Assembly (NCBI GenBank): GCA_963575745.1
Contig: CAUYUJ010000220.1
Coordinates: forward strand, 1-64,000
Source: Prorocentrum cordatum
Taxonomy: Eukaryota
Length of the DNA: 64,000 nucleotides
Direction of reading: 5' to 3'
Within the stretch, counting starts at the first letter, position 1. Every line of letters begins with the position of its first letter. Below the pieces are notes generated by a model. That model had not been told where the DNA came from. It searched no databases and worked only from the letters and a program-made list of their open reading frames with translations. The translations under genes were made by a program, and so were the position numbers. Below are positions 7,713 to 48,049 of the stretch, piece after piece.

Positions 7713-7753
<41 letters not shown>

Positions 7754-18732: not shown

Positions 18733-18766
<34 letters not shown>

Positions 18767-26469: not shown

Positions 26470-27058
26470 CCCGATCCTCGGCCACCTCGGCATTGGCACA
26501 AGCGGGCGCCGCGGCCGCCCGCGACGCGGCGGCGTCGCGCGCCGCCTTGGCGGCCACGAGGACCTCCACGGCGTCTCTCGCCGCCTGCCTGGCGCGGACC
26601 GACTCGGCGAACGCCGAATCGACAGCCGCCTGTAGCATCGCTGCGCCCCACCCCGACTCCCCAAGCATCGACGGCAGTCCGAAGGCATCGATGGCATCGG
26701 CCTGAGCTGCTGCGATACCGCCCGCGGGCCGCGCGGCCTCGGCGACATCGTGGGCGGCCTGGGTCGCCTCGCTGATGCTGGTATCGGCCTTGGCCGACGG
26801 CTCGGCGCTGGCCGATCCTGCCACAGGCCCGCTGGCGTCTTCGGGCGTTGGGTTACCCGAGGCCGCCTCGTCCTGCAGCGGCCGCTCGACGGCGGGCGCC
26901 TTCAACAAATGGGGCGGGGGCGGCCCTGGCGGCGGATGCGGGCCCCGCGGCGCGACCACCGCGGGAGGCGAAGCTGCTGACGCGCGGCGCGTCGGGGCCA
27001 CGACGACTGGAGCACGGCGAAGCGGAGCCCGCGCGACGCGCGGAGGCGGTCGCCACAT
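26470..27058 (-). CDS. Hypothetical Pro/Ala-rich ORF or exon nested in a gene B intron
   Basis: ATG at 27058 (MWRPPP...), helical segment AMLQAAVDSAFAESVRARQAARDAVEVLVAAK; end uncertain. Confidence 0.4.
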
Positions 27059-28004
27059 ATCGGCCGTGCCCCGCACGGGCGCTGCCGCAAACCCGAACCA
27101 AAAAACATGATACGTAGTGATCGGATGGGGGGGAGATGAGAAGAGCAGGATTGGCGCCACCGCACCGCATCTGACGCCTTACCATTTCCATACCTCCCAT
27201 GTGTCCCAGGGCTTCTGCCTACCCTTTATCCAACTTAAACGGGCCATCACAAACAATGCCTGAAACCGTGATCTGCATCCTGGGTGGGCCAGCTACCAGA
27301 CCTCGCGATAACTCAGACCAGGCAGACCCCTATAATACAATACACCTTACATGCCAAATACAATCAAGCGGCCCAGTCGCGGCGCCCAACACGCCCAACC
27401 AACTCAGAATGTGATGTGGCAAGCATCCAGAAGTAGCAAAGCGGATCTCGAAACGCGTGACATACCAAGCTGGCATTGCATCGCATAAACACATGCACCC
27501 GACCCGCCTGATGCACCCAACCCTCTCTTTTCCCTTTAAAAGAAATTGGCTAAGGGCTCAGTGCGCAGGGCTCGAGGTTCCGAGTTTCGAGCTGATGGCT
27601 TAAGGGCCCACCTCGGGGCTCAAGGCATGTTGATCTGGGTCGTGGGCACCAGGCTCAGGGCACATGGCATATCAATGAGAGCTTCGGGCTGAGGCCAAGG
27701 GCTATGGGCAGAGTGCAAGGAGGGGTGGTGTCTTCGGGCCGAGGGGTCCAAGTTGACGGATTGAAGCTCAAGGCAGAGGGCTGACGGCCTCGGGCCCATG
27801 CGCAGGGGCACCCGCTGCAAGCTTGAGGAAAGAAGCTGGGGGCTGAAGGCCATGGACTGGAGGCTTCGGGCTCGGTGCCGAGGGCGCAGGGCCTACGGCC
27901 AGGGGATCGGGGCGTTCTTATCCGCGGCCCACGGCTCCCAGAGAGAAGAGGAGGAGGGGGGCGAGGAGAGGGGAGAGCGAGAGAAGCGTTTTGAATCGGC
28001 CAGC

Positions 28005-28109
28005 CTGGAGAGGCACCTCGCCCGCGCCAGCGTTGGCCAAGTAGAGGCTCTCCTCGTCCGTGACGGGGAACATCTCCTGTAGCATGAGGCCGTGCGGCGA
28101 GAGCTTGAC
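28005..28109 (-). CDS. Gene B exon 2 (VKLSPHGLMLQEMF...GEVPLQ)
   Basis: Acceptor gaag|GTC, donor CAG|GC; 35 codons, phase 0. Confidence 0.55.
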
Positions 28110-29138
28110 CTTCGAAATCCAACTAGCCCTAAACCTGGACAAGGCACCCCGCGAGGCGCTGGAGCGGCCAAGATTGTCCAAGACGGCGCCGAGAAAGCCT
28201 CGAGGAATGCAAGATGGCCTCCCATATGGTTCAAGAGAGCGCAATATCGCTTAAGACGGCTATGCTCCAAGGTCCCCCAATACCCCATCCAAGATGCGTC
28301 CATGAGCCCTCGAAGGCCCCTGAGAATACACCCAATACACCAAAACCTTTCAACGAAGTGCAAAACATGGCTGGTTATGGCATCATCGCCACGGTCTTCT
28401 AACGACCATTTCACGCCTGACAATTGCCCCGAGCTGGCCCGAGAGCGCGGCGATATAAGGGGGCCACGTGAGCCCCAAGACGGCCTCAAGATAGCCCAAG
28501 AGCGCTCCAAGAGTCCCCGCCCACGAGCACCCCAGATTATGAAAATCCCCGAGGGGAGGGGGGAGGTACTTGAAGCCCCCCACATTCTCTGATAAAGCCA
28601 CCCCCATTTAAAACTGCCCCAAGAACGCCCACGGGCCCCCGAGAGCGCCAAACGAGGGCCCCAGGAGGCGCCCAGGCGGCCCCAACAGGCGCCAAAGACT
28701 TGAGGCTCCCAAGGGGCTCACCCACCCAAAGAAGCCGCAAGAGGAAGGCACTCCAGACGCTCGAGGGCGCCCCTGGACCCGCCTAGAGCCCCGGCCCCAG
28801 ACGCCCCCATAAGCCTACTCCACACAGCTTCCAAGATACACCCGAGATGACCCGACAGGCATTCAAGAGGCATGTGGACCCATTGCTTGCCCTTCTCATC
28901 CCCGTCCTGCTCCTCATTATCCTGCTTCTCATCCTCTTTCTCCGCATCCTTCTCCTCCGCGTCGCCCTTTTCATAAATGTCCCCCCCCCGCCCGCGTAAT
29001 CCATCCATCCAACCTCCTCCTTATCCTCCTCCATCCTTCGCACGGCTCGGATGCCCCCGCATTTGCCCCCGCACTCCCCTGATCACCCCCGCTCCCCTGG
29101 CCACCTCAACTCCTCCCGATGGCGGTGATACGCGAAGC

Positions 29139-32100
29139 GCCACGAATCTGAAACCACTTCGGCACGTCGACGCCGAAGTCCACGAGCTGGTCCTCGTCGT
29201 CGCCGCCGTCGAAATCAGGAATCCAAGAAATTCTGATGATGATCTTGCCGCCCACGAACAAAGAACGGTCCTGGGCACTCTGCGGCTTGAACAACTCCTT
29301 GCAAATCACAAACAATCTGTTGCGGGCTCGGCACAGCGCGAGGCCCTCCGCGCCGCAGAGGCACACGCCTGCCTCATAGCACTTGCTCGGGGAGTCGCTG
29401 GGCACGTTGTCGGGCGCCTCGATGCCAGGCAATACTCGGCATAAGTGATTCCACTGTGCGATGGCAGCCGCTCCGAAGGCAGAGGTCTTGCTGCCGCCAA
29501 GCTGCAGCGCCGAACAAGCCCGCGCTGCCAGCGCCGACGCGCCCCCAGCGTCGCGCTCCAGGATGCGGGCGCCGAGGGCGGGCGGTAGCGCGCGAAGCCA
29601 CGATGCGACGGCCTCAACTCTCGGCGCAACAGCGGTCAGCTCCGAGACGTACTCGGCCGTGTGCTCGGAGCTAAACTTCTCGACGGCGTCCCTGTCTGCG
29701 ATATCCTGGGACTTGTCCTGCTGCCGTAGGTGTTGCACCACTGACCTGGCATGGCGCATGGTGTCGTCGAGGCCCCTGCCAGCGGCCGCGGACTCATCCA
29801 ATACCCGATCGATGGCGTCGTGGCGGTCGGCCTGCCCGAACCGAACCAACGCGCATTCCATGACCCGCCGTTCCTGGAACTTCCTCAGCTCCCTTGCAGC
29901 GGGCCCGAACGCTGGCAGTCCTTCGCGCACCCTCTCCTTCGCCTGGTTGCCCTCATGCTCGAACACCTGCCGCTCCTCTGGAGTGAGTGCGCGGTAAGCG
30001 GCGCCCATCGCCCTGAGGTCGTTGTTCTTGGACATGTGCAGGAATGCCCTCCATGCGCCCCCGAACCCTCGATGGTTTCGCTGCTCGGGCGGCCCCGCGG
30101 CCACCTCGCCTGCAGAGGAAGCTGCGCCGCCACTCGCGCGGCTGAGGCCCTCCTTCAGCTGTCCGCTCAAATCGTCCGCGCTCAGATCCGTCATATTCAT
30201 TTTGTGCGTTTGAACTCTCCTGCTGATGACCCGCCGCAAGTACGCATTGTGGCACTCGTTCTGGACGATATTCGTTTGCAGTAAAAGCGCCATTGCAAGT
30301 AATTCCATTGTGTACTCAATACTGCCGACGCGGCACCGAGACCGCAGCTCCCGAGTCCACGGGTCAAGCGAGCATTCTGGATCGCCTGCCATGCTATCGG
30401 CGAGCTCGGGCTGCACTAACAACAAGAAATTCTTGGTGGGGTACCTCTCCGCGGGCTCGATGAGAAGCGACTGCACCGACGCCCCTGCTATCGACAACGA
30501 GATGAAGATCTGCGACCGAAGCGCATTTGTTAAATCATGAGGTGGAAGCAGGGCCCACATCACATGATTTTGCATCATGAAAACAAGCCGTCTCAGCGCC
30601 TCACTCTCGATCACCATACTGGCAACTACTGAGGCCCTAAACTCTCGATTGATGCCGCCAGGGTTTGACTGTGCCGCCCTGGCTGCCTTGGCCCGCTGCT
30701 CGCGCTCCCATCGGAGAGACGTGAGGTGAGTTTGCTTGTTGAGCATTGTTTGCAGAGCGTGCAGAACATTCCGAACTACCACAATGCCGCTGCGGGCGCT
30801 TGGGCCCTCCATGCCGAGAAACGACAGCGAGTTCGAGAGTGCCCTGGCCATTTTTTTGGCTCGCTCCCTCTCGCGGTCAACCTCGCCACGAGCGTCCGCG
30901 GAGTTGGGGTCGCATGGCTCCTCGGCAACGTCTGCAACGGGCCGCAGCACCTGCCAGTTGAACGCAGGGGCAGGGTCTAAGTCGAAAGGGCTCGTGGCTG
31001 GAGCCCGTTTCCGCGCCTGCAGCAGCAGCGTGAGGAGGCACATCGCAGGCTTCATAACTCCACAAACCATCACGGGCAATCCTATGTCGCAGATGGCGCC
31101 CTCGACTCGTGTCCAGCGAGCCCTGTTCAAGACGGAGAAGCATTTCGAACACAAGCCCTGCACGATGCCGTCGGCGAGCTCGTCCTTATATCGCTCAGGA
31201 TGCTGAACCGCCTGATCCAACCAGACGTCCATGCGCGACTCCTGGAGCCAGTCGCCGTTCGGGAGAAGCCGAAGCAGTACGCGGCGCCGAAGAGAGTGCT
31301 GATCACCAGGAATGAAAGCACGCAACACCATCATGTGGTAGAGCACCATCTCCCTCGTTGGTTTCCCAATTCGCAGGCGCAGCATCTTCCGCACAACTAT
31401 GTACAAGCAGTCGCGGAAGTCTACGAACATGCCCGCTGTGTTGAAGAACAAGCCAGTGTGCAACACCCCCCGCACGACCCACTCGAACGGCACGCAAGCC
31501 TCACCGTGAATCGTGAACGTCTTGTGGGCAACGCACTTCCACACCAAGATGCCCCACGCAGCTTGTTCGGCCCTGAGTCTAAGAATCTCCCGCTCCGCTG
31601 CGTCATTGCTGGGGTGGCGATCGGAGTCTGCTGCCCCTGTCCTGGCCTCGAAAAAATTGTCAGACATAGGAGTGGCATCGTTTTCCAACAAAGCTTGCGC
31701 AATACACTGGGCAGAATTCGCCCTGAGCGCTTGGTTCACGGTCGTAGACCCCCCAATCAGAATCGTAAAACGCTCGTCACCGCCTCTCCTGAACGACGCG
31801 ATGTACGCAAAGTGGCTCCGAATGTGGAACAGCTTCGTGACGTTCACCTGACTCTCGTACCCCAAGTGGCCCCTCAAAAACGGCAGGTATACTTGCAAGT
31901 TGCTCGTCGCAGGAACCATCGCATTCGATTGTTGCTGCGAAGGGTGGCGTTTGCGCCTGTCTGTTGTCTTCAAGAGCTGTGGTGTCTCGTCGTAGCTGTT
32001 GTGGTCGATAACTGCTCTAGCGCGAACTCCAGAGTCTGGCGTCCTGGCAAGCTGCACAACGGCTTCTGATAAAACTTGTCGAAAAACCCTGTCGGCGTTC

Positions 32101-32468
32101 CACTGCAAGCTGGCGAACTTATAGTTATTCCTGTCGAAGCCCTTCCTACTCACATCCAACGCTTCAGCTCTAGCATTTTTGCCCAAGTGGGGGGTCAGGT
32201 TGAGGAAAAACTCGCTGGCGTGGTCATCCACGTCGTGCTCGCCGACGCCAGCCGCCACAGCCAGCAAAGCACGGGTTGGTTGCGATAGGGGAGAGCTTGT
32301 GAACATCAGCCGCGGCAGCGTGATATCCTGCGAAACTTGTCTGCTGATCCTTCCAGCTTCGGCCGCCTGGGTGGGCAGCGCGAGCTGGGCGCCCTCATCG
32401 CGCCGACGTCGTTCGGCCCGAGCCTTCGCCCGAGCTACCTGCAACTCTTGAGGCGTTAAGCGGGGCAC
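29139..32468 (-). CDS. Gene B exon 1: DDE/CxxH transposase-like protein with an HMG-box-like segment
   Basis: 1120-codon ORF with ordered motifs SYDETP, DSDRHPSN, WKCVAH, RARWT and NECHNA, then GGAWRAFL...MGAAYRALTPEERQVF (HMG-like) and CYEAGVCLC. Start is GTG; start and donor positions are uncertain. Confidence 0.8.
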
Positions 32469-32515
32469 CGGCCGAAACTATTGCGATCGTTGCGAGACGA
32501 TCCAAAGCGAAAGAA

Positions 32516-32537
32516 TTTGAGCCAACATGGTTACGGA
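32516..32537 (-). other. Relic dinoflagellate spliced leader
   Basis: TCCGTAACCATGTTGGCTCAAA, 19/22 match to DCCGTAGCCATTTTGGCTCAAG, ~47 nt 5' of gene B. Confidence 0.85.
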
Positions 32538-33599
32538 ATCGTGCTTACGAAGGCGTGATAACCTAGGCTTTGTGATAGAAGTGGCCCTTCGCTGGCGTCG
32601 GGTCGCATTCGCCCCCCTTGCAATCCGACGGGGGGGAAAGGAGGAAGGGAACAGGGGAGAGCAGTAGTAAAGGGATAACAATATTTGACGACAGCGCCAT
32701 CTCTCGACGGCCACCCCTGGACCTGACGGCAAAGACCCCCGCCCCTGGCAGAAAACAACGGGCGCTTGCATGAATGGGCAAGGATAGCTGCATCATCGGA
32801 CGAGGACGCGACGCTGCAGCAAAAGATGTCTCCCCTGCGTTACTTCGCGCCACCCGAATGAATTGTCGACGCAACCGATCCTCATCGATCTCCGCATTAT
32901 TATCCTCCTCTGGGGAGTTTGTATCACTTCTCCATCTGCTCCTCCTGCTGCTGGCGGCCCTACTACTCATCATACTATTTCTCCTCCCTCTTGTCCCCCT
33001 ATACTCCTACTTCTCGGCATCCTCGTATTCCTCCTCCTCCTCGTCGACTTTGACCTCCCTCAACCTCGCCTTTATCATTATCCTTGTCCCCTTTCTCCTT
33101 CTCTACAAACGCTACAAAAGTCGAGGGAATCCAAGCCGCCAGGAAAGCAATCTTAAACAGCGCCGAAACACAAAAACCTAAACATTTGAAAAACATCTGT
33201 TAGGCATTCGTTACGTGTGAAGACACGCCAACGCTGCGGGGACATCTGGAGGACATTTGGGGTGGATATGCGCACCCCTCAATGTCTAGCCTGCTCGCCC
33301 CTTGCGGTGCAAGGGCCCTGGAAGGCCATGTCGACACACTTTGAACGGGGCGCGGCCAGTGGAAGCAGCCAAGATGGACCGAATGAGGCAAGGATGCAAG
33401 GGCAGCCTCGGAAGGTGCTCATCCTTGGGGCACACGCAATGACATACACATGGGAACCCTCGGGTCCGCGCGGGTTCCTCGGATCTGCGCTGGGCGCCGC
33501 TGTCAGCGTGGACCGCCGAGCGATTCTGCTTATGTCTTGCTTGCTCTTACTATGCGCATTGACTGTAACAGATCACTCTCTGCAGAGCGAGAAAAGCCG

Positions 33600-36500
33600 G
33601 CAGTAGGCGCAGGGCACGGGTGCGCTCCTGCTGCGACGGCCTCGTCGGCCAGCAGGTGGCCGGCGTGGTCGGCAAGCCGCGTCTCCAAGGGTTTAGGGAA
33701 GGCCAAACGCACCCCCAGGACAGCGCACCACCAGTGAGGTGTCGCAGCGACTACGGTTCCAGCCACGGTGGGCGCCAAAACGCAACAGTTTGGCGCCCCG
33801 AAGTGGGCCATGAACCCTCTCCATGATGCGTCTGCTCTGGGGTACGTTTGCGCTGCCCTGAGGGGTGGACCCTCCTGCTTGGGCACGTGGGTTTTCGTGG
33901 GCTTTGACTTTCCAGATGTTAAGCACCTGGGATCCAAGGCTGTCGAAGTCCTCCAAGAGTCCCTGGAAGATCCTAGAGGAGTGAGCCCAGGCCGACTTGC
34001 GGCGCCCCGTCCCCCCGCTGCAAGACCTTACAGACAACGGCGAAATCTGAACCCGTGGACACGCAAAAGAGCGGGAATGGGTTGCGCGGGGAATTGCGGG
34101 GGAGCGATCCGCGCGCGCTAATCGTGACAGCCATGATGACAGCGCAAACGATATCGGGCAATGGCTCGATGAGCAAACCAACGACGCTGGCGTTGACGCG
34201 GTCCTCTGGCGAGACTGGCGGAGCGGCAATTTAAGCGACGGCCCGCCCGGCAACGACTCGTCCGGGGTCTCGTCCTCGACATCCGCGCCGCCAACGTGCA
34301 CTGGGGGCCCTTCGACGACGCCAAGCCCTCAATGCTTCGCGATATGTTCCATGGCTGGCTGGGCAAAATCAGGAAGCGGCACGGGCCGCGCACGGCGCCC
34401 GACCAAAAGCTGGGCCTCGGAGATATCTCGTCGCCCCGCCAACGCGACTTCTCGGGCAAGGTCGGTCCGGGGCTCAGCGCGCCGCGCACGCGCGTGCACG
34501 AGCTCGCCGCGGACCTCGCACATCAGGCTGGCCGCGCCGGCAGTATGCCCGATCGCGCGCCTGCGAGCCACGCGCCGCTGCCCATCGAGAACGGGCGACC
34601 CCCGCCGGCGGCGTACAAACCAGTGCCGACCTTCCACGGCTTGGTCTACCAGCGTGCAAAAGGCGCGCGCACAGAGCTCAGCAGGATCCACTTGCGGGCC
34701 TGTCTAAGACCGTCAGACTGGAAACTGACGCAACGCTCGGCCCGCGCGCGCGCTGGGGTCACCGCCAAAGCGCCCCCTGGGCCCACCGCTAGGGACTACG
34801 ACCCAGGCCTGCGCCGAGTCTCCCGTGCTCGGCCGGCGGGGGGGCCCCGCGGGCGAGCGTCGGCGCCGCGGGGCCGAAACCGCGGATTCAGCAAGGGCCC
34901 CGGAGGTCGGGGGCGCGGGATAGATTTGGCCACGGCCCTGCAGCATGAGGGCCAGTGCGCGCGACTTCCCCGCCGCGAGGGACTGCCGCGCCATGGGGGC
35001 GATGACGCGGCCGACGGAAAGCCGCTGAGTAGTCGCGCCAGCGCGGACCACGTCGCGGGGTGCAAGCCCCCCTGAGCGATTCGCTGGGTCGCGCGGGCCT
35101 GCGCCCCGCTGCTACGAGAGGCGCAGATCTCGGAACGCTCGGGCCCCTCGCCCCCAGGGGCCGACCGCTCGCGTCGGCGGCCTGGGCCGCTGGCTGGCAG
35201 AAGATCGACGCAGAAATGCCCCGTCGGCGAGCTCGCCGCCACCCTCCCATGCGGCGCTCGGCGCCGGCGAATGCCCGCGCCCCGACGTCCGGGAGACCGG
35301 CTAGAAACGGCATCCCTCTGAATGGATCGGCGCTGCTCGCCCAGCGAATCGGGCAGGGCGCGCGACAACTGGGCGAGCTCGCTCGCGACGCGATTAATTC
35401 GGCCTTCCCTCTGGCGGGCAAGAATATCCATGGCCGCCGCAGCCAGGGGGCAAGGCCGCGGTCGCGGCGCGTCGTCCAGGGGTGGAAAGATGAGAGGGTG
35501 CGCGAGGATGGTGGCGTGGCCGTGCCCGGGGAGGGCAGCCAGGCGCGCGCTCGCAGGGCCGGGCGCTGCTTCGCGCGCGGCAAGGCGCCTCGAAGCCCTG
35601 CGCGGCTGGGCGCGCGATTCCAACTGCCAAGACGGAAACCGCGCGCGCCGCGGCATCTAGCATGCGCTCGCGCCGAATAATCTCCAATACATGGGAAGAT
35701 CCCAAGGGCATCGACGCTGAAATCGATGCTGCGAGAATCGTCTGGCGGAGCAACGAGGCGAGCGATTCGCTGCAGTCCGACTGCTGTCGCGCGGCGCGAT
35801 TGCGCGCCCTGCCCCTGCTGGCGCAGAAAGCACAACGTCTGGAGCGCCCCCCCTCCCTGGCGACGCGGGCCGATCGGCGCGGGCGAGCTTGGGGCCCGAG
35901 CGCCAGGGGCAATTGCAGCAATCGCCCCGAGTACGTCGCGGCGTTTGGAGGAAGGCAATATCAGGGCGGGCCGTCGGCCAGTCGGCGTGGGCATCGCGCG
36001 CGACAGCTGAATTAACGGACGCCCCGGCGCCTGGGCCATCGATTGCACGCAGCGGACGAGGCCTCGGGCTACTGGGTGAACAGCCAGCGCGAGCCTTCAT
36101 CATTGCGAAAACCCCCCGCGCGGCCCCGACGCTGGACCTGGCCCCCGCGTCACCTTGCCCGACAGCCCAGGCCCCCGACATCGCCCCTTCGCCAGGGCCG
36201 GCTATTCTTCCTGAGTCGCTTCTGGGCGGCCCCGAGGCCCGGCGACGGCTCCCGGAGGCCGAAAGTAGCGATGGACATCCGTCAAGTTGTTTCCCTGCCC
36301 AGGGCGGGGCCCAGTCGCGCGTTGCCGCGCGCCCTGCGGCCGGCAACTTCAGCGCGCCCGGGGCGCGGCGGAACCCGCGCGCGCATGCGACAGAAACGCC
36401 TGCAGCGCCCTGCTGTCAGACCTCAGGCAATCCGAGGACGCCATGTTCACAGCCCCGCGCGCTTCAATGTCGGCGCCGGCAGTGCCTTCGAAGTTCGCGC

Positions 36501-37100
36501 GATAGAGCATCCGACGAACAGAGCGCAAACAAGTGGCGTCAATGCGCGCAACTCGCGCATCTTCAACGACCTGACGCACGCATTGAATATCAACTTCGAC
36601 AGGATGAGGCTTCGACGCAGGGAGGAACGCAAGGACAGCTGCAAGCCGCTTTTGCCGAACACTTTCGTTGCTGCCATGGCGCTTGTACTCCGAAACGACG
36701 CGCGGGAACGCATTGCCCCCTGGCACGCGCGTGCCGCGCCCGGCTTCAGTTCGCGACCTCTCATGGAACTTCGTTGCGTGATTGCCGCGGAACTTGGCGA
36801 ATCCCCCCCCCCTCCTCCCCCTCCGCCTCGATCTCCTCTTCCCCCCCCCCCCGGCATCTTCGCGCCCCCCCCCCCCCCCCGCCCCCCCCGCTCAGGTCGG
36901 GCGAAAGGAGGGGGGGGATCTGCCGCTTCCAGCTGATCAAAAAGCCGATGGGCAACGACCGCAGCAATTGCCGTGGCGGCGCAGCCCGGGCCAGACGCGC
37001 GGGCCACGGGCCGCGCTCGGGCGCGCGCGCCTCGACGCGGCTCGGATGCCCTTCGAAGCCGCGAGGCGCATTGAAAGCCCACGGCGCGGGAGACAAATGG
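33600..37100 (+). pseudogene. Possible decayed coding region of unknown origin
   Basis: Microsatellite-poor stretch with protein-like fragments in shifting + frames (e.g. MLRDMFHGWLGKIRKR, RIFNDLTHALNINFDR); no recognisable family. Confidence 0.3.
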
Positions 37101-39829
37101 CAGATCGGGGATGGTCAGAACCCTCTTTAATAAGACACGGCTAAGTGAAAACGACCTCGGGCCTCCACCTGGCGGGCGCTAGCCGGGGGAATGACGGCCG
37201 CGGCGCCCTCTCGAGAGCCGAAAACGGACAGCTCACTTATCGGCGCGCCAGGGCGGGGGTTCTGCCCGCCCCCGAGCAGACTAGCGGCGCCGCGCAGCGG
37301 GCGGCGAAGCCCCGGGTGGAAAATGCGCCGAGGCTTGAGCAATCGGGGCCTTCGCAGCAATCGCGTCGCTGGCCTGCCGCGAGCGCGTCGCCGGGGGCGA
37401 TCTGAATTGCGCCGAGCAGTTGCGATCCAGACAGTGCGGCGAGAGGTCCCCAGGCATCGCCGATTACGATTCACCGCGTTGCTGCACCGACGACGCGCGG
37501 ATAGAAGCGGTCAGGCCGTTGGCGGATCGCCGATGCCAGACGCTCTCCGCGTCGCCTCGCAATCGCTGCGGCCGGGGCGTAAATGCGACCTCCGCGCGCC
37601 CCGCGGGGGCCCGAATGCAAGTGGCGTTCTCGGTATCTTTCGCAGAGTGAACGAGAGGCTTGGCTCGGCGATCGCCCGGGGAGAGCATGGCGGGCGGGCG
37701 AAGCCCGGCGGGCGTGCCGGGCAGAGCGCGCGCGAGTGTCCGCCGACGTGGGGCCCCCCAACGAATACATGAACAATCAAATTTTGCGACGGCGAAGCTG
37801 CGCTTGAGCTCGGGGAAACAGCGCGCCCCCCCTCGAGCGAGGGGCCCCGTGCTCTTCGAGCGCTTCGGGCTGGAGGTTTAAAGCCCGCTGGAGGATGAAG
37901 ACGCGCGCGGCTGCGGTTCGCAGGCGCTGCGCTGAGAGGCCGAGCGCGCCGCGCTGGTTGAACTCGTCGAGCCCGCCGCCCGCCTCGAGGTCGACGCCGG
38001 CTAGCGAAGCGACCGTCCAGCGCGCCCGGGCTCGAGCGGACCGCGGCGCGGACTGCGCTGGGCCACCGCGCGCCGCTTCGCGCGCGGCGAGCCCGCGACC
38101 TTCGAGCATCGCGTGGACGCGACCCCCCCCCAGCCCAAGCAGCCCGGCGCGGTATTCTAGCGGCGCTTCCAATGCGAAGCAGCCATGTCGAGGCGATTGG
38201 AACTCGGCCGCGACGCGCCGATCAGGTCGCGCAGTTCGCCGCGATGCCGGCCTACCTGCCCCCATTAGGCCCCGGTGGGCCTCCGCGGCAGTGGGCTGCT
38301 CCGACTGCGCGAACTCGCCTGGCGACGCGCCAATCACTGACGCCCTGTCCTTCTTGCTGCGCTGCAGCAAATCCACGGGCGCGCGGTGCAAGCGTAAACT
38401 TGAATTGCTCCATTGGGGGATCGGCCGGCGTGGCGTCGTTGAGCGCCGGCGATGACTGGCGCAACGTCGGCACCGCGCTGTCCGACAGATTCCGCCGGCT
38501 CCACGTTGTCATGCTTTTAGCGCCCTGCTGGCTGCGTTTCCGCAGCGCCATTGGCGCGCCGCGGCCGCGGGGGCGGCGCCCGCCGGCGGCCGGGCCGCCG
38601 CGGCGGGGGGCGGCGGCCATGGGGGCCGCGCTGGGGGGCGCGGCGGGCGGCGTCGCCTGTTGAGCCCGCGCTCAAGCGACGTCTCGGCCGCCCGCGTCGG
38701 CAGCCGCCGCGGCGGCGGTTCTGCGGCGAGGTCGTCCTGCGCCAGGGCACGAGCTAGACGATGTTTTTCGTTATCGCTTGGTCTTCGCATGCCTTCGCCC
38801 CATCTTCGCGCGGCCGTTGCTGCGAAGCGAAATCAAAGCGGCAGCGGTCCACGAAATTGCAAAACGCAGATTATCTCGAGCCCTGCCCCGCAGCCTTGCA
38901 GGCGGCCGCCAGGGCTCGCGGGGGGCTCCCTTGACGGGGGCAGCGGCCGCAGGCTTGGGCGGATCAGCGCCAGGTCTGTCGGCGCTCGTCGAAGTCGGCC
39001 CGGGCGGCCCTGGGGCCCTCGGCTAGCCGCGCGCAGCCAGGCGCGCGATAAAGAAACGTATGATTCAAAAAGCGTGGGGCCTGGGTCAGCGCCCCGCGAG
39101 CCTCTCAAAGCAAGCCTGGGCCAACTTCTGCTGTTGACGCTGAAAGGGCCAACGCGATGCAAAGAACTGGGTCAGCTTTCTGGAAGGTTGGTCAAGACAC
39201 CCTGTCCCAACCTTTCGCGACTTCGGGGCCGCGGCCTCCAGCGCGAGCTGCAGCGCGCCCTCCTTCGCGGCAGCGGCCTGCTCCGCCGCCGCCGCGGCCG
39301 AGCAGCCGCGGGGGGCGCGCGGGTACAGCGAGTTGCAGCATCGGCAACCACCAGAAGAGGTTACGACTAGACAAAGTGGAAGAAGAAGGGATGGGAGGGG
39401 GAACAGAGGAATGCACGCATCGCTGTGACTGCGCAAGTCATCTACAGCTGCCGTGTAAAATGGCGCACGGACGACGCCCGTTGCCGCCGGGGCCGGGCCC
39501 GCTGGCGGCGCGCAGACCTGCCCCTCGGAGACCCGCGCGCATAAGAAAGTAAACGCTTGAAAGTGAATCTGCACCGCGGCCAGCAATGCATTGTGCGCTT
39601 TCTTCCGGCTGGGAAGAAGCACCTGAAAATGCGGTATCGCCGAAACTTTCTGCAGCGCGCTCGCGTCGCTCACCCTAGATATACATGCCGAGGCATGCCT
39701 GAAATGCGCCCCAGAATCCCGCGGTGAAAAGCGCCCGAGGGGGGCGCGCTCAGCCTTGATCACCTGTGGGGAATACACAGAATACAAGAGCAAGCTCAAA
39801 CAACGCTGTCGTAATTATTGCCTCTCGTT

Positions 39830-41830
39830 TCAATCGAATTGAAGAGCGCGACCACAATTGATCAAGTTTCTTTGACGTTTTCGCTGCTTCCCCTCACCTT
39901 CTGGGCACTTTGTTGTGGCTTTGCCATCGCGCGTGGCCAAATCCCCCAAGCGCATTGCGTCGCGCACGGTCTTGATGTCGCTTCCATCTGGTCTTGCAAC
40001 TCGCGCGCAGGTCGAAATCTGCATCTGCGCCGCGCTGCCGCAATTCAATTCCAAGCCGCGTGCGCGCCCTTCTTCCACGCTCGTTTTAAGCGTGGCCTGA
40101 ATATTCGCTCGATGTCGAGGTGCTAATAATGCGTCGCGCGCATGGAGAATGCCCTGGGGCACCGCATAGCCAGGTTCGGGGTCGAGGACCGCACCGTGCA
40201 ACGTGATCGTCTCTACTGCGATGAATAAGTACGGTGACAGCGGGCATCCTCGTGAACTCCCGGCGTCCTGGGGCCTCTCCGTGGAGCTTCCGGCGTGGTC
40301 AAGGATAATGGAGAGACGCGCGGAGGATATGGAACGCATCACGTCGACGATGTCACTGGGTAATCCAAGTCGGCGTAAAGCTTTGCACATGGCCTCCGGT
40401 TCAAATCCGTCGAAAGCTTTCGCCCAATCCAACATAAAAAACCACAATCCCACCACTTTTGTTGACGTGCGCGGCATCAATCATGCGCCTCACAAGCATG
40501 AGGGCGTCCGCGGCGCCGCGCCCAGGCCGGAACCCATATTGCGAGTTACGCATGCGTTCTGATCCACCTTAAAGTAACCTTTGGCGCATGAGTGCAGCCA
40601 GAATTGTATATCCCGCCGAAAGCAAAGAAATTTGACGACAATTCTCTGGGAGGGTAGTTTTTCTTGAGTGATAAAACTACTTTCGGTCTGTTCCAACGAG
40701 GGAGGATTCTCCTTCCTAGTCCAGCGTTGTCGGCATACTCGCAATCAAACGCTGGTTGCGCCACTATCACACATCAAAGCTTCCCAAGCATCTGATGATC
40801 TTTAGTTCCGTAACACATTGTAACGCTCATAGATAGTGAGATCGTGTGTGCGGACAGGTAGAACATCACCAATTTGTTGAGTTTGACATTATGGCTGGAA
40901 TTTTGGATGTCGCAATTGCCATTGCCTTGTTTCGAAATAGTCAGCCATGACATTTGCGCGTTCTGCAGTATCTGACCGTGTTCCATTTGGCTTTCTGATA
41001 GCAGCATGTTTGACACTTCTGGGTTTGCGCAAATAACGAATCACGTCCCATGCACCTCCACCAAGATATATTTCCAACCAAGTGTTCTGGTCTTGCTTGC
41101 CACATTTGCGGGTCATCGTGTTTACTGCTCGTTCTGATGTTGAATCACCCGTTTGACGATGCACCCTCCGTTTTTTTTTTTTTTTTTTTTTTTTTTTCAA
41201 GAAGATCAAGAGTACGCTGGCTTGTCCAAGTGCGTTTTGGCGGGGCTGTTTTGCCGGGTAGCGCGCACGCTGCTTGTTGGAAGGCTTGTTCAACATCATC
41301 TGCTGCTTCATCGGGTGTGGAGGTTTCGTATTCAGAGCGGGCGGCGGCACATGCGGGCAGATGATACCGTCCTCCCCAGTTCTGACGTGGCGGGTCGCCA
41401 GATTGAACGGACGAGATCTTAAAATTGATGATAAAACGAATGCCTCGTGCCAACATGTACTCTATTGAGATGGGCATATGCAGATATAAGCGCGAGAACA
41501 CCACCATGCGTCTTCAAGCGCAGTGTCGCAAGACGATCGCCGTTCGCAACGCTGACCGCATTCGCGGAAAAACAATGAAAGCTACACCTGCCCATGATCT
41601 TGTTTCCTTGTTGACTTCCCCTGGCAGGAACACAAAACAACCATCGTGGGTGAAATATTCGGCTCCATTGAAAGGTTTTTCCGGAATGCTGAAAACGTCC
41701 AAATTGCGCTCGCACATCAGATTGTACAAAATTCAACGTAATTCACAAAATAATCATCTCGGAGACCCTGAACGCTCCATGTGCCCAGGCGCTGCAAACT
41801 GTGAGGCTGGCAACCCCGCCTCGGCCGGCC
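39830..41830 (-). mobile_element. Degenerate non-LTR retrotransposon (LINE), APE endonuclease plus reverse transcriptase
   Basis: Frameshifted fragments: LGTWSVQGL, GVAFIV, LISAYAH (APE); WTSQRTLDLL, ANVMADYF; LDWAKAFD and G..RGCPLSPYLF (RT motifs). Confidence 0.85.
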
Positions 41831-42265
41831 CCAAGAAAATGTCGCAAGAGAAGCCGAATACGTAGAAGACGAAGAACAAGAAGAGGAATGAATCTTTGAT
41901 TCATGCTGAGACCGGCCGCGTAGAGGACGTAGGGGTACCGGGTGTCGTGCAGAAGGATGTTGCAGGGAGGGTGAAACGACCACTGGTCGCTGAACGACGG
42001 TAGCTTTGCCCAAATTCGCCGCGACTGTAGCGGCAACTTTGCCCGCGGTGGCGGCAGAGAGGTGCTCAAGTGACTCTCTGGCACGGCAGAATGGCAATCT
42101 TTCAGGCCAGGCTGCGGGGGCCCGGGTCCGGCCGTGTTTCCTTTTGGCCTTTAGATGTGCCTTTGGCCGTGCCTTTCATTGAAGGGGCCCTGGGACACAC
42201 AAATAAATACACACAAATAAAACGATTCCCCATAGCCTTTGGCCGTGCCTTTCATACCCTGGGTG

Positions 42266-42443
42266 CAGTCGGGGCGTGGACCTAAGGAACCCTAAACAGG
42301 GAACGAGGCCCCTCTTTTCCACAAGTGGAACTTCGACTTCCCGTCGAGGGCACGGGGGAAACCTGGGGCAAGCCGTGAAACACTTATAAGGAACACCGAG
42401 CCCCTACCCAACGAAAAGGGCTCCCTCCTCCGCGCCCCGACGG
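42266..42443 (+). mobile_element. MITE family A, diverged copy
   Basis: cagtcggggc...gccccgacgg with the same internal sequence; TA flanks lost. Confidence 0.8.
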
Positions 42444-42559
42444 TCACCCGGCGACGGCCTGCTGCATGGGAAAAACCTCCTTCGCGCACGTCCTCCCGCG
42501 GCGCAGGCGATACAGGCTCGAACACCAGCACCGTCCGTGGCGAGCCGAGCGGCTTTCTC

Positions 42560-42737
42560 TCAACGGGCGAAGAACGATATAAAATAAACTTTTTCGCTGT
42601 CGGGGGCGCCTGCCCCAGGGCGGCTGGAAAGTTTATACCCCTACAGTGCCACCGTAAGGGTATAAACTTTCCAGCCGCCCTGAGGCAGGTGTCCCCGACG
42701 GCGAAAAAAATAGTTCATACCGTTCTTCGCCCGTTAA
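42560..42737. mobile_element. Fold-back (full-length hairpin) element with a 5-bp TTCTC duplication
   Basis: Arms aacgggcgaagaacg...agggcggctggaaagtttataccc and gggtataaactttccagccgccct...cgttcttcgcccgtt; TTCTC at 42555-42559 and 42738-42742. Confidence 0.85.
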
Positions 42738-43261
42738 TTCTCGTCTGCCTGCGCCTTGCGACCGCGGTCGGCCTGCCCGCGCCGTTTGCGGCCCCGCCGT
42801 CGCCTCCGCCCCAGACGCCTGAAGGCTGCCGATGGCTTCGGGGATCTGCTGACCCAGATCGATCGAGACCCGGGCCAGTCGGCCTTATGCAAGATCCAGC
42901 AACATTCTGCAGGATCCTGCGCGCAGACCCGTGTGAGTGCACCCCTGGCCCTGTAGGATCCTGGCTGACCCCCGTTGGAACGGACCCCCGTCTCAAGGCC
43001 CTCGACGGGTCAAGGGTGCTGCCGCACCGGGACAAGGATTGAGGGCGCGGCGCCGCTGCCTGGCACACCCAGCCTTGCTCCTCCAGCGTGGAGGCCGTGC
43101 GCGGCGCAAGACCATCCCATCACGACACAATGAACATCAGGGGATACAATATGAAAGGTATCGCATCGAGTCCTGCCAATGGCGTAGCTGCAGCACGGGA
43201 ACTGTTTGGGCCGGGAACTCCCCACGCCACGGTCCCAAGCCCCTTGAGGAATGCCTCCAGA

Positions 43262-43283
43262 CTTGAGCCAAAGTGGCTGCGAA
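43262..43283 (-). other. Relic dinoflagellate spliced leader
   Basis: TTCGCAGCCACTTTGGCTCAAG, 19/22 match. Confidence 0.8.
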
Positions 43284-44204
43284 CTTCCCCTCCCCCTCCT
43301 CCTGCCGCTCCTTCTCCCCTTCCTCCTCCCACACATACCATCCCCTGGCCGTGTCCTGGGGCGCAGCCTTAACAAAAAGTTCAAGCGGACCCAGCTGTGG
43401 CGACAAGGGTGCCCAACTGTTCAAGAACAACTACCGCTATACTGTAGATTCGCCTCTCCTCCGACCGTATGGGGAGGGTGCGAAGTCCCTGTGTGCGGGA
43501 CGGAGTGGGCAGGGAGAGACACCCAAGGTCTCCCAACCTTCGAGGCCCTGGCACCATACGCGCGCCCGACACTTTCGGGGGAGGCATCATACGCCTCCCC
43601 GGCAACTCTGCGCCAGACGCAACAAAACAAAATCGGGGCCACACCATCATGGATGAAGGATGCATGGGTCTAGTGCGCGGTCGCCAGATCCATGGATCGG
43701 GGAAGGCGCTCCCGAGAAATTGCGCCCGTGCTGCCCGATTTGGCGGCTGCGCCCGCCGATTCTGCATGAAAACGGGGCCCGTCGCCAATACAAGCGACTC
43801 AATCCATGTTTGCGAGTCCTTGAAATAATTGGATGCGTTCCTTGAGTTCGGGGTCTCCTCCTCCTCCACCGGCCCAGACGTCTCCGCGGAGGGCTCCCGA
43901 GGCCGCTGGGGCGCCACCAGACAGAAGCCCCCTGGTTGCCCTCTGAAGCCCTGGTCCCTCCGGAAACGGAACGACGGAGCTAAGCACGTGCAGGAGGCCA
44001 TCCTCGATCCTCGTTTCGGCGTCGCCTCAACCCCTCTCAACGATCAAGATCAAAGGAAGGTAAGGAGAAAAGAAAGGCAGGCTCAGCAGAAGGAAGGCCG
44101 CGCCTGCGCGTGCTTGACCCACCCACCACTCCGCCCCCCCCCGTAACCAGGGGCATCCTAGATCCTCGCCCACTCGCCTCATCCCTCATCTTCCCCCCCG
44201 CTGC

Positions 44205-44405
44205 CCACACATATGAGGCAGGTGCCGATGATCACCTTCGGCTGCAGCCTCTCCTGCAGGAACGCCACCGAGAAGGCCACGACCATGATGGTGTTCAGCT
44301 TCCCGAGGATCTGCATGGAGGCCCCGCCGATCTGCTTGATGACGAACATGCCGAGGAGGTTCAGGGCGCACGCGCTCACGCAGGTGGCCAGCACCAGAAG
44401 CGACG
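44205..44405 (-). CDS. TPT/SLC35E-type transporter exon 7
   Basis: SLLVLATCVSACALNLLGMFVIKQIGGASMQILGKLNTIMVVAFSVAFLQE...GTCLICV, typical C-terminal TM helices of the TPT family; final exon not located. Confidence 0.8.
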
Positions 44406-45099
44406 CTGGAGAGGCGAAGAAGGGAGGGCGCCCCGCCATACGCTTTTTGGCCGAAGGGCTGGGCAAGAGGGAGGGGGAAGGAGGGGGGGGAAGCGAGATA
44501 CGGCAGGTTCGTGCGGCGATGACTTCCACGTTTGTTGCTGATACCGCGTGGATCGTTCACACTTGAACCATCGCGTCTTCCCGATTCCCGATAACGCAGA
44601 TCGTTCGATATCGGCCGGTTCCGGGCCACTGGCGGCGTCAAACCAGGAACGCCCGTGCCGGTGTCGCCACCGCGGCAACGCGGCGCGAACCTACCGGAGG
44701 GGGAGGGGGTTGGGAGTCGATCAGGGGAACGTGCCTGGGTCGTGTGCCAGAAGCCGCGCGGACGTATCATTGGGTCTTTGGCAGTCTCTCAGAGCACGGA
44801 TGGGGGCCTCTTGGGGGTCTCCTCTGGGAGCTTCCCCAGGGCGTCCTGGGGCCTCTTGGGGGCAGAGATCAGTGGGGGAGCGGGAGAAGCAGCGGAGAAT
44901 GGGTAGAGTCAGGGAGCGTTACTGGTCGCCCGCAGCCGAAGGGAGGGTGGGCCGAAGGCGATGCCCTCTCTTGGCCGCGCCACGACGTGGGATCGAGAGC
45001 GCGGACCTCCTAGCTCTTCATGTGGTTGCCATTTTTTGTTCCCTGGGTCAGGAGGGCCTCGAGGGGTACTGGCAGCGCACCTCGCTTTCATCCTCCCTG

Positions 45100-45302: not shown

Positions 45303-45447
45303 CTGAGACAGGCTCGCCCCCTCCGAATACTTATCAGAGCATGTCGCCCTCAATGGAGGGATGTATGAACAATGCCTGTTCTCGGGACTGGTAATGTTCC
45401 ACAAATCCTTCTTTGGTGCGACCATGCCTGGGGTGTACTCCTAGAAG

Positions 45448-45593
45448 CCTCCGTGTCGGAATAGATGGGGTTGGAGAATCGTGCCGCATCGTCGGTGTAT
45501 CGGCGCCGTCGTGACGCAGAAACCGCATCAACAATGCATCGGCGATGCGGCTCGATCCTCCGACCCCGTCCACTCCGGCCCTCTTTGGTGAGG
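45448..45593. mobile_element. MITE family B, diverged intronic copy
   Basis: tcggaatagatggggttggagaatcgtgccgcatc...gatgcggctcgatcctccgacccc. Confidence 0.65.
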
Positions 45594-45907
45594 TCGCCGA
45601 ATGTCGCGCACCGCCCTTGGAGCGACGCGCGGTTGATCTTGGTGCCCTCGCCCCGCCCCCCGGAGAAGGGCAGATCTCAAGCCCAGGCCGCGACGCGCGA
45701 TGGGCGATGACTTTCGCGCCAAGCGAGATGGTGTAGCGATCTTACGTGGTGGCTTACGCGGGCTGCCCGCGCGGCACGCCACGTTTGAAGCGAGGGCGCT
45801 TACGCGCGACCTTACGCGGGCAACTTGCGCGCCAATGTCGGCGCAGACGACCCCGTTTTGTGGCGTCGCTCATTTGGGAGGCCAGGAAATTGGACGGGCC
45901 CCGCTGC

Positions 45908-46192
45908 CTTGATGGAGCGAAGCAGGACGGACGCCAGGGAAAAGAGCAGCCCAAAGGCCACCGCGCCGCCCGCATGCCCGTGGCCCAGCTTGCCCCAGGC
46001 AATCACGCCGGCTCCTACGCAGGCCATGCCGACGCCAACCCAAGCGAACTTCGCAACTTTCCTGCCCATGAGGTTAGCAAGAGCTGCGGTGGTCACCGGG
46101 GAGAGCGTTGCCACGATGGAGTTCAGACCAGCGCCGAGATAGATCAGCGCAGTGTTGTTGAAGACAACGGACAGCGGAAGGCTAAGAGCGAT
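45908..46192 (-). CDS. TPT transporter exon 5
   Basis: IALSLPLSVVFNNTALIYLGAGLNSIVATLSPVTTA...SVLLRSIK; donor AAG|GC. Confidence 0.85.
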
Positions 46193-46326
46193 AGTGGGGA
46201 GCAGAAAAAACAAACGCCTACTCTCGAAGCCCTTTCCAAGCTCTTGCCCACCGCATGTCTTCGTCCTCTCCCCTCCCCTCCCACCCTTTCTGCAAGTAGG
46301 TGCTTTTCTGCTCAGCTCCCCCAGCT
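46193..46326. mobile_element. Inverted-repeat-bounded insertion forming TPT intron 4
   Basis: Ends AG(C)TGGGG(G)AGC..AGAAAA..CCTACT are inverted; precise removal gives F-I-L-P|I-A-L. Confidence 0.65.
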
Positions 46327-46422
46327 GGGCAGGATGAAAGTGGTGTAGCGCGATGCCGAGCCCATGGAGGAGGGAAGCGCCTTGTGGGACTCGCCCTTCA
46401 CCAGCCAATACACCACACAGAC
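46327..46422 (-). CDS. TPT transporter exon 4
   Basis: ccgcag|GTC start; VCVVYWLVKGESHKALPSSMGSASRYTTFILP. Confidence 0.8.
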
Positions 46423-46560
46423 CTGCGGAGGACGCCAACAACACCTGCACCCACCTCGGCCGGGCCGATCCCGGGTCCCGGATCGGTGTGGGTGTCTGGC
46501 AGCCCCGTGTGAACTCCACCCCTGCAGGTCTAATCTCTGGAGCGCCAGCTGGGGTTCATA

Positions 46561-46736
46561 CAGTCGGGGCGTTGACCTAAGGAACCCTAGATAAGGAACG
46601 AGGCCCCGTTTTTCCATAAGTTAAACTTCGATTTCCGATCGGAAACATGAGGAAAACCTGAGGCAAGCTGTGAAACACTTAAGGAACGCGGAGCCCCTCC
46701 CCAACGAAAAGGGTTCCTTCTTCAGGGCCCCGACTG
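46561..46736 (+). mobile_element. MITE family A within TPT intron 3
   Basis: TA|CAGTCGGGGC...GCCCCGACTG|TA. Confidence 0.9.
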
Positions 46737-46862
46737 TAACCCGAACGATGTCTGCAACCGAGAAGACCCCCACGGGGGTGTCCGATAAGCCAGCGTCGAG
46801 CGGACCCGCAGGGGCGGGGTTCGCAATCGGCCGCAAGTGTAAAGCTGGCGCCCCGCGGGTAC

Positions 46863-46895
46863 CAGCCAGACGGTCGCGAAGTGCAGGACAGTCAC
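46863..46895 (-). CDS. TPT transporter exon 3 (33-nt micro-exon VTVLHFATVWL)
   Basis: ctaag|GTG...CTG|GT; completes the family motif YPGW-VTVLHF. Confidence 0.8.
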
Positions 46896-47081
46896 CTTAG
46901 CTGCCCCGCAACGCAACACGCAGAACGTAGCGTATTGTTACGGAGCTCAACACGTAGACTTAAAACGTGGGTATGACGCTACACGTTCGACAAAACGTCG
47001 GCCGACACGCTGAGCCAGCACGCAACGTATGGACACGGACGTTTTCAGCACAGTGAGAATGGCGTTTCAAAATATAGAGGG

Positions 47082-47280
47082 CTCCTAGATGGGGTCCGAT
47101 TAGGTGAAGTCGGGGGATCGCGCCGCATCGCCAATGCATCGGCGATGCATCGGCGACGTCGGCGACGTATCGACGACGTCGGCGGGGAGAAAATCGGGCT
47201 CGGCATCGAGCCGCATCGCCGATGCATCGGGGATGCTGCGCGATCCTCCGACCCCATCTACTCCGACCCCGTCTGGGAGG
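47082..47280. mobile_element. MITE family B within TPT intron 2
   Basis: ctcctagatggggtc...gaccccgtctgggagg with the cgatgcatcgg core. Confidence 0.8.
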
Positions 47281-47319
47281 CTGAGAAAACGGGCGTGTCG
47301 CGGCGGCTGAGACAGTCAC

Positions 47320-47446
47320 CCATCCAGGGTAGTTGAAGCTGAACGGCGCACTCGACAGCTCCTTCATCAGCAGCTGCGTGGAGACGAGAGAGCAGATGAG
47401 GCCGACCGTGCAGAAGGTGGCGGTCGGCCCGTGCGGCCGGAGTACG
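47320..47446 (-). CDS. TPT transporter exon 2
   Basis: VLRPHGPTATFCTVGLICSLVSTQLLMKELSSAPFSFNYPGW (K..L...F.YP motif); donor TGG|GT. Confidence 0.8.
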
Positions 47447-47891
47447 ATCGGCGGCGAGCGAGGGGGGGGCAATGAGAAGGAGAAGACCTTCTCGGAAGGC
47501 GGCGGGACTTCTCAAAAGCCTTCGGTGGCAACTCATGGGAGCCTCCCATACCATCTTGTCGGCTCTTGCGAATCGACGCTGGTTGACGCTAAATCGACGC
47601 TGATCGACGCTAATTCGGCGCTAATCGACGCTAACCGACGCTAAATCGGCGCTAGCTCATCGACTCCCGAACGCTACTCGACGCTAAGGACATAATTACG
47701 ACCATACACAAGGCTCCCATGATTTCCTACCGAAGGAGAAGGCCTTCTCAGAAGGCGGCGGGACTTCTCCGAAGACCTCTTGTGTGCGTTTTCGGGAGAA
47801 GCTTAGGAAGCTTCTCAGAAGGCCGGGGGACACTTCCGAGCCTTCTGAGAAGGCCTGCCCCTTTTTACTTCCCCCCGGGCTCGCCGCCGAT
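47447..47891. mobile_element. TIR-bounded insertion forming TPT intron 1
   Basis: Perfect 13-bp TIR ATCGGCGGCGAGC extending imperfectly to ~50 bp; contains an (AATCGACGCT)n array at ~47570-47690. Confidence 0.75.
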
Positions 47892-48049
47892 ATAAAGCAG
47901 ACCGCGCTGAACAGGGAGCCCACGATAACCACGGCGATCAACTTGCCAACGCCCTCGGTGAACTTGCTGGAGGCGGCAACCTGCAGCAGAGAGATCGATA
48001 GCACGTCTTCAACGGAGCTGGGCTCGAGCATGACGGCCGTGTGTGCCAT
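47892..48049 (-). CDS. TPT transporter exon 1
   Basis: ATG at 48049; MAHTAVML...LIAVVIVGSLFSAVCF; SL relic ~70 nt upstream. Confidence 0.65.

Follow-up and report, generated by a model that had tools for sequence, protein, structure and literature searches.

The window, i.e., the whole stretch of 64,000 nucleotides from Prorocentrum cordatum that was analysed, contains on its minus strand a transporter gene of the DMT/EamA (TPT-like) type with eight exons, and this gene is the host of the 134-nt segment described here. It belongs to the EamA-domain genes, with a match to PF00892 in exon 7 (E 5.9e-7, 30.3 bits) above the cut-off of 28.2 bits and a second one in exon 5 (E 2.9e-5, 24.8 bits) under it, and the transcript-derived protein P0001 (398 aa) has PF00892 and PF03151 as precomputed domains. 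With tblastn, P0001 was found over its whole length in the window, in eight blocks of 100% identity. Furthermore, the exon adjoining the 134-nt segment is 100% identical to a P. cordatum protein of NCBI as well as to a transcript-derived MMETSP protein. For the intron ends, all donor/acceptor pairs whose joined translation gives P0001 were enumerated, and the contigs of four public sequencing runs, originating from four studies, were aligned to positions 36001-56000. The resulting features are listed in Table 1. Introns 2, 3, 5, and 7 have GT/GC-AG ends, and the other three of the seven introns lack both consensus dinucleotides, their ends differing among all three. The very long intron 7 is supported by an RNA contig whose loose end at 44203 continues into exon 8, by the metagenome contig L001, which aligns to 4857-4734, and by the public gene model P0071, which spans the intron. 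A search of Rfam over 44000-48200 gave no match at E up to 1.

Table 1. Exons, introns and inverted-repeat arms of the transporter gene, in the order of transcription; positions are those of the window.
Feature	Position	Strand	Support or remark
Exon 1, coding part	47891..48049	-	start codon 48049; tblastn and RNA contigs
Intron 1, 448 nt, non-canonical	47443..47890	-	joint 47442>47891 in 4/4 runs
Exon 2	47442-47320	-	P0001 and RNA contigs
Intron 2, 424 nt, GT..AG|G, 10-nt identical boundary repeat	46896..47319	-	protein solution and RNA contigs
Exon 3	46895-46863	-	P0001 and RNA contigs
Intron 3, 440 nt, GT..AG|G	46423..46862	-	protein solution and RNA contigs
Exon 4 (VCVVYWLVKGESHKALPSSMGSASRYTTFILP)	46327..46422	-	tblastn 100% to P0001; contig pieces with 0 mismatches
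Intron 4, 134 nt, non-canonical	46193..46326 (AG..CT) or 46192-46325 (GC..TA)	-	joint 46191>46326 in 4/4 runs
5' inverted-repeat arm of intron 4 (GGGGAGCTGAGCAGAAAAGCACCTACT)	46295..46321	-	begins 5 nt inside intron 4
3' inverted-repeat arm of intron 4	46196..46222	-	stops 3 nt short of the end of intron 4
Exon 5 (IALSLPLSVVFNN...LLRSIK), EamA domain	45908..46192	-	Pfam, tblastn, RNA contigs
Intron 5, 605 nt, GC..AG|G, usual dinoflagellate type	45303..45907	-	protein solution and RNA contigs
Exon 6	45302-45100	-	P0001 and RNA contigs
Intron 6, 698 nt, non-canonical	44402..45099	-	joint 44401>45100 in 4/4 runs
Exon 7	44401-44209	-	P0001 and RNA contigs
Intron 7, 39,351 nt, GT..AG|G, 6-nt boundary repeat	4858..44208	-	protein solutions
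Exon 8 (last)	4857-4756	-	P0001

The GC content of the window is ~0.51-0.71 in 2-kb windows. Among 18 long ORFs of the window none has a Pfam match, and nothing but the transporter exons and a pair of long single ORFs passes a screen for GC3 and composition. Both of these ORFs lie in intron 7 on the same strand, at 7973-11656 (1228 aa) and 29109-32477 (1123 aa), respectively, and both have a coding-like GC3 and no Pfam match; the 1228-aa ORF has a P. cordatum paralogue of 773 aa with 62% identity, and no transcript-derived relative of it was found. Between 50200 and 54500 low-complexity, GC-rich tandem repeats give rise to long spurious ORFs on both strands, which encode poly-Gly/Pro/Ser/Leu/Arg as well as recurring PLPFDPSPAGRGGG-like units. 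Members of a family of palindromic, MITE-like repeats, in which motifs of the CATCGGCGATGC type abound, are present at 45455-45581, 47073-47281, 3894-4174, and 60287-60502, so that copies lie within introns 5 and 2 and others elsewhere in the window. Intron 3 harbors a 180-bp repeat (46559-46738) with copies at 58340-58519 (92%), 3058-3229 (86%), and 42266-42450 (82%), at whose borders, 46559 and 46738, RNA contigs from other loci break off with loose ends. Moreover, 51032-51435 is an inverted copy (94%) of exon 4 together with the neighbouring stretch of intron 3 (46335-46738); its similarity breaks off 9 nt before the insertion point of intron 4, and position 51460 is covered by RNA contigs in all four runs with one extra G there. 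At position 45173 the contigs of the runs X6 and X16 have T instead of C, those of X2 and X9 do not, which could be due to a strain difference or to RNA editing. Other joints, e.g., 38719>52638, 39300>52637, and 47468>47732, were discounted, as their sides are 20-28 nt long and GC-rich or repeated.

Read on the minus strand from 46326 to 46193, the 134-nt segment starts with AGCTGGGGGAGC and ends with GCTCCCCACT. When the frame of exon 4 is continued into it, the translation is ...FILPSWGS followed by TGA, whereas without the segment CTG CCC is joined to ATC GCT and the conserved FILP|IALS is restored; across this junction P0001 reads FILPIALSLPLS. In each of the four runs one contig skips exactly 134 nt, with 1 nt of play, and this leaves the two registers given in Table 1 and no other. 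One contig per run carries all aligned exons (1250-1660 nt, with 0-1 mismatches), and the same contigs also show the three canonical joints of 605, 440, and 424 nt. A sequence-only reading of this DNA had proposed an insert at 46193..46326 with AG..CT ends (GC..TA when slid by 1 nt), whose exact removal joins CTG CCC to ATC GCT and without whose removal exon 4 runs into TGA. Coordinates, sequence and RNA joints agree with this position and these ends, the predicted joining is found in four of four RNA runs and in the transcript-derived proteins, the frame translation reaches the TGA, and the check that it had suggested, i.e., spliced RNA across the junction aligned without requiring canonical sites, yielded the 134-nt joint in every run.

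The four runs are judged to be transcript data and not genomic DNA, because words of the introns are missing from them and approximately the share of the exons alone is present: all 24 runs listed for the locus contain at most 0.25 of the sampled words of 44100-48100, 20 of them with words at 0.06-0.25. For run X9 polyA RNA is on record, and the other three carry no recorded library type. The proteins agree with the contigs. In an alignment of 15 proteins over the junction 14 are collinear, with P137 invariant, and the single exception is P0002, the public model of this very locus. The same unbroken junction sequence is also found in L001 (1361 nt, intron-less, ~90% identical), the only relative found among metagenome contigs, which as such is uninformative on genomic structure. 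The segment is exactly absent from mature RNA, its ends are outside the consensus, it carries an inverted repeat at the DNA level, and its absence restores the conserved protein, all of which was shown here. Intron 4 differs from the standard dinoflagellate spliceosomal intron, which has GT/GC/GA..AG ends and usually AG|G; in the GC..TA register the donor is acceptable, and the acceptor is TA. It has, however, what defines the non-canonical introns of the Amoebophrya type, namely a junction supported by RNA together with non-canonical ends.

Introns 1 and 6 are two further non-canonical cases. For intron 1, contigs of all four runs skip 448 nt with 2 nt of play, which allows the registers TC..TA, AT..GT or TA..CG. 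It has terminal inverted repeats of ~54 nt and a 2-nt TA direct repeat, and as good a repeat occurs in only 0.15% (ungapped) or 0.005% (gapped) of 20,000 random stretches, so that intron 1 is clearly a fold-back element. Intron 6 is skipped in all four runs as well (698 nt, again with 2 nt of play), with CA..TC, CC..GT or TC..CG as registers. Its terminal repeat is not significant, being equalled by 33% (ungapped) and 11.5% (gapped) of 20,000 random stretches. CA..AG ends for intron 6 would fit at the protein level, but are ruled out by the nucleotide joint 44401/45100 with its 2 nt of play. The 5' end of intron 6 (CAGGGAGGATGAAAG) may resemble the end of a hAT-type transposon, but with its insignificant terminal repeat this reading was set aside. 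At their boundaries intron 4 has a direct repeat of A (1 nt), intron 1 one of TA and intron 6 one of TC (2 nt each), and G[TCA]..AG is absent from all registers of introns 4, 1, and 6 (two, three, and three, respectively). Within intron 1 there is also a 38-nt direct repeat (47476-47513 and 47732-47769, 95%), and short RNA contigs of three runs join both copies with a few foreign letters between them; these contigs probably derive from related elements that are transcribed elsewhere.

The two arms of the intron-4 repeat are 27 nt long and 74% complementary, they include a perfect 7-nt GGGGAGC/GCTCCCC, and in a shifted register a perfect pair of 10 nt is found. Among 20,000 random 134-nt stretches of the window 0.4% have an equally good ungapped, end-anchored repeat, and when the 35-nt ends are aligned locally with gaps, 1.35% of 20,000 random 300-nt stretches are as good. 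The inverted repeat that the sequence-only reading had seen at the ends of the insert therefore exceeds chance as DNA, although modestly (p 0.004-0.014). Inverted repeats of 8-20 nt, as they are demanded of introner elements, are present in introns 4 and 1 and lacking in intron 6. Compared with the hallmarks of a MITE, intron 4 has the terminal repeat, no clear duplication and no second copy in the window; neither the whole element of 134 nt nor its repeat arm was found again within the 64 kb.

We consider the 134-nt segment to be a real intron of a working P. cordatum transporter gene, non-canonical in the manner of Amoebophrya and derived from a transposon, with a probability of about 0.7. 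A small non-autonomous DNA transposon of the MITE-like kind would have inserted into the coding sequence, and the terminal repeat of intron 4 would be its relic. The insert may have persisted because the cell can remove the element from the transcript, presumably by a splicing activity that tolerates arbitrary dinucleotides and that could be the spliceosome or a separate pathway. In accordance with this proposal we infer that the excision takes place at the RNA level and from precisely this locus, by an activity tolerant of arbitrary boundary dinucleotides.

The repeat could also act in the RNA itself. As proposed for euglenids and Amoebophrya, it would then fold, join the ends of the intron and set the cut sites, and the arms are indeed well placed, since a stem would set in 5 nt after the 5' end and 3 nt before the 3' end, a geometry that resembles the +4-6/-8-6 pairing of euglenids in the portion of the review that we consulted (PMC11282704). 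In particular, the 7-bp GGGGAGC/GCUCCCC helix, 5 nt and 3 nt away from the ends of intron 4, could bring these together, although it is not favoured by folding. For intron 4 the partition function puts the expected number of pairs between its 15 nt at the start and its 15 nt at the end at 0.00, and forcing the terminal stem yields -41.9 kcal/mol against a free MFE of -59.6 kcal/mol, i.e., a cost of ~18 kcal/mol; without this constraint the pyrimidine run at the 3' end is paired with an internal purine-rich block instead. The fold of the whole insert is modest (z = -1.67; 14 of 200 shuffled sequences fold equally well), and the energy of the end duplex lies at the 7.7th percentile of 2,000 draws. 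For intron 1 strong pairing of the ends is predicted (9.99 pairs), so that a hairpin joining the exon boundaries is predicted there and not in intron 4, and intron 6 has 0.01 expected pairs. The canonical introns 2, 3, and 5 reach 0.78, 9.70, and 5.99 pairs, respectively. Strong pairing of the ends is thus seen in one of three non-canonical and in two of three canonical introns, and since it fails to separate the two classes, we read the repeat of intron 4 as a relic of a transposon and not as a determinant of the splice sites. Splicing defined by a hairpin is for these reasons unlikely. The structure-defined splicing that the sequence-only reading had put forward accordingly holds in its first half, the non-canonical excision being found in all four runs, and is not supported in its second, and the RNA folding which it had named as a check gives the modest fold without the terminal hairpin. 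Endonuclease-type cut sites are characterized by 3-nt bulges flanking a 4-bp helix or by CNG|NNGN loops. On inspection of the MFE structure neither a bulge-helix-bulge motif nor IRE1-type twin loops were found at the junctions of intron 4; a local stem contains the 5' site, an internal loop of 4 nt the 3' site, and no helix is formed between the exons.

A different explanation leaves splicing aside. The gene analysed here might be a recently disabled or non-expressed copy whose exons carry three insertions, in which case the transcripts would come from an insert-free allele, paralogue or retrogene; a dead gene copy was also among the explanations offered by the sequence-only reading. Genes of dinoflagellates frequently occur in several copies, intron 4 and intron 1 do look like small transposons with inverted-repeat ends, and the runs that contain words of the locus are transcript data; the contigs show no unspliced RNA over the boundaries of intron 4 either, though contigs cannot show its absence. 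However, the exons differ from the transcripts by 0-1 mismatches over ~1.2 kb in all four runs, so that three very recent insertions would be needed, all of them in the ~1.2 kb of coding sequence of a locus of ~43 kb. Intron 6, moreover, is without a transposon hallmark. The public proteome also speaks for a single locus: apart from P0002 (244 aa) and P0071 (111 aa), no P. cordatum protein was found at NCBI for this transporter, and each of the two occurs on a single contig, the same one of 116,735 bp, which corresponds to one annotated locus with no intact model elsewhere. A further point is provided by P0072 (399 aa, from metatranscriptome sources), which equals P0001 with one extra Ala at the junction of intron 6. 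A second, likewise non-canonical excision of 695 nt (44407-44409 / 45101) encodes P0072 exactly, and its extra codon GCG is identical with the final 3 nt of the 698-nt intron found here. As far as the sequence can tell, this fits a wobbling choice of the junction on a precursor that contains the intron; alternatively, the extra Ala may represent a 3-nt allelic difference or the excision footprint of a transposon. Altogether, transcripts from an insert-free copy appear rather improbable, and excision at the RNA level is favoured, because the exons equal the transcripts, only one locus is annotated, the public models fail at exactly the three non-canonical sites, and a variant like P0072 exists.

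It is very improbable that the joints are artefacts, be it that the inserts are errors of the genome assembly or that the deletions arose by template switching of reverse transcriptase or during transcript assembly. Reverse transcriptase can jump segments flanked by a hairpin, and the contigs are the product of automated assembly. However, three identical joints recur across four independent studies, the microhomology at the joints is merely 1-2 nt, and intron 6 has no hairpin; a conserved protein is restored, the ~90% identical relative shares the junction sequence, and assembly errors do not usually take the form of 134-698 bp of inserted unique sequence.

Even less probable is a programmed elimination of the inserts from the DNA of active copies, comparable to the TA-bounded internal eliminated sequences of ciliates. 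Alveolates include both dinoflagellates and ciliates, and intron 1 is bounded by TA with one copy of TA kept, but introns 4 and 6 lack such bounds, and no distinction of germline and soma is known for dinoflagellates.

Equally remote is conventional splicing at internal GA..AG sites as the main route, i.e., 46318..46218 or 46318..46182, which both preserve the frame and the second of which was chosen by the public annotation for P0002, as neither is among the joints listed for the four runs, all of which have the 134-nt joint, and as LPIA is present in all transcript-derived relatives. The first of these, an intron of 101 nt with GA..AG|G ends that adds SWGRLFFLLPT, had been offered by the sequence-only reading and is not supported, with 14 of 15 proteins showing no insertion at this point; the second, 137 nt long, belongs to the public model. 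A rare GA..AG isoform may escape notice, since contigs drop rare variants.

The public annotation has mis-modelled the transporter gene at all three non-canonical sites and divided it into two models. P0002 omits exons 2-3 after intron 1, has an invented GA..AG intron at intron 4, which results in FILPSWGLPLS with SWG instead of IALS, and then runs into intron 6 up to a stop, whereas the start of P0071 lies inside intron 6. Consequently, the database holds two truncated and partly wrong proteins where one transporter of 398 aa is expected. According to the sections of the genome report that we consulted, the gene-prediction pipeline of P. cordatum accepts only GT/GC/GA-AG sites (Dougan et al., 2023; PMC10666404). 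In the same sections, a reviewer comment states that AGG acceptors are unusually few in this annotation, with 79.7% (Dougan et al., 2023; PMC10666404), and this low share might be linked to non-canonical introns that are not annotated.

The scope of the analysis is one gene, as the window has no other spliced gene with transcript support. Since three such introns lie in one small gene, thousands of them may exist. We therefore suggest, tentatively and with somewhat more doubt than confidence, that P. cordatum, besides its ordinary GT/GC/GA-AG splicing, has a sizeable class of introns with arbitrary boundaries, possibly removed by a separate pathway and maybe numbering in the thousands. If this is true, current annotation cannot see the class, and of the 85,849 gene models that are published many would be broken or split. 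It would also mean that removal at arbitrary boundaries coexists with normal splicing in one and the same transcript, that the ability to remove such inserts is older or more widespread in dinoflagellates, and that transposon insertions into coding sequence are tolerable in the very large genomes of these organisms. The host of the three introns is a bloom-forming core dinoflagellate that causes red tides.

The ordinary introns of dinoflagellates have an identical repeated boundary that contains AGG, as described in the consulted part of the study by Mendez et al. (2015; PMC5032977). Introns 2, 3, 5, and 7 fit this description, as they have an AG|G context and 3-10 nt repeated, whereas introns 1, 4, and 6 repeat only 1-2 nt and have no AGG at either site. 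Introner elements of core dinoflagellates (Polarella, Symbiodiniaceae) resemble the present case in that they, too, are introns of dinoflagellate genes that look like transposons and have inverted-repeat ends. In the available part of the preprint, however, all of them are G[T/C/A]..AG, with splice sites that come from the target-site duplication or from the element ends (Roy et al., 10.1101/2020.10.14.339549), and in contrast to the duplication of 3-8 nt that supplies their sites, intron 4 has a duplication of at most 1 nt and no canonical sites. For P. cordatum itself the consulted portion of the genome report gives introner elements as enriched, with 2.4% of the annotated introns, and these were sought within annotated introns with a pipeline modified for GC/GA donors (Dougan et al., 2023; PMC10666404). 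In a non-exhaustive search of the literature we found no report of introns other than G[TCA]..AG in Prorocentrum or other core dinoflagellates.

The nonconventional introns of euglenids, a lineage unrelated to dinoflagellates, share with the introns described here the non-canonical junctions, the potential for pairing just inside the ends, short junctional repeats, a presumed descent from MITEs and the presence of conventional introns beside them, as far as the consulted part of that report goes (PMC11282704). They are characterized there by pairing of +4-6 (CAG) with -8-6 (CTG) and by a pyrimidine|purine consensus at the junction (PMC11282704), which intron 4 does not have. Unlike in euglenids, CAG/CTG is absent from these positions, +4-6 being TGG or GGG, and the helix of intron 4 starts from +6/-4. 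Euglenid nonconventional introns leave the transcript as full-length circular RNA, later than the conventional ones do.

The closest parallel is found within the dinoflagellates. In Amoebophrya A25 and A120 more than 60% of the introns are non-canonical without any dinucleotide signature, and 11-30% of the non-canonical ones have inverted repeats of 8-20 nt and direct repeats of 3-5 nt (Farhat et al., 2021; PMC7789003). Going by the consulted sections of that paper, introns without a boundary signature have so far been documented in dinoflagellates only for these two strains, where they were connected with the parasitic way of life and with the apparent lack of a U1 snRNA (Farhat et al., 2021; PMC7789003). 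The direct repeats of 1-2 nt at the boundaries of the P. cordatum introns are shorter than those of 3-5 nt in the Amoebophrya introners as given in these sections, and unlike the latter the 134-nt intron is without a predicted RNA hairpin. The Amoebophrya introners also make up repeated families dispersed through the genome; of the 134-nt element the window has one copy. Moreover, Amoebophrya is a syndinian parasite, whereas P. cordatum is a free-living, photosynthetic core dinoflagellate of the Prorocentrales. Nevertheless, as far as the same sections describe them, both have in common a dinoflagellate host, a removal that is supported by RNA and goes without conserved boundary dinucleotides, a subset of introns with inverted repeats at the ends that are MITE-like and without transposase, canonical introns alongside, and the failure of standard gene predictors (PMC7789003). 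It is therefore probable that intron 4 belongs to the non-canonical introns of the Amoebophrya type, here found in a new lineage.
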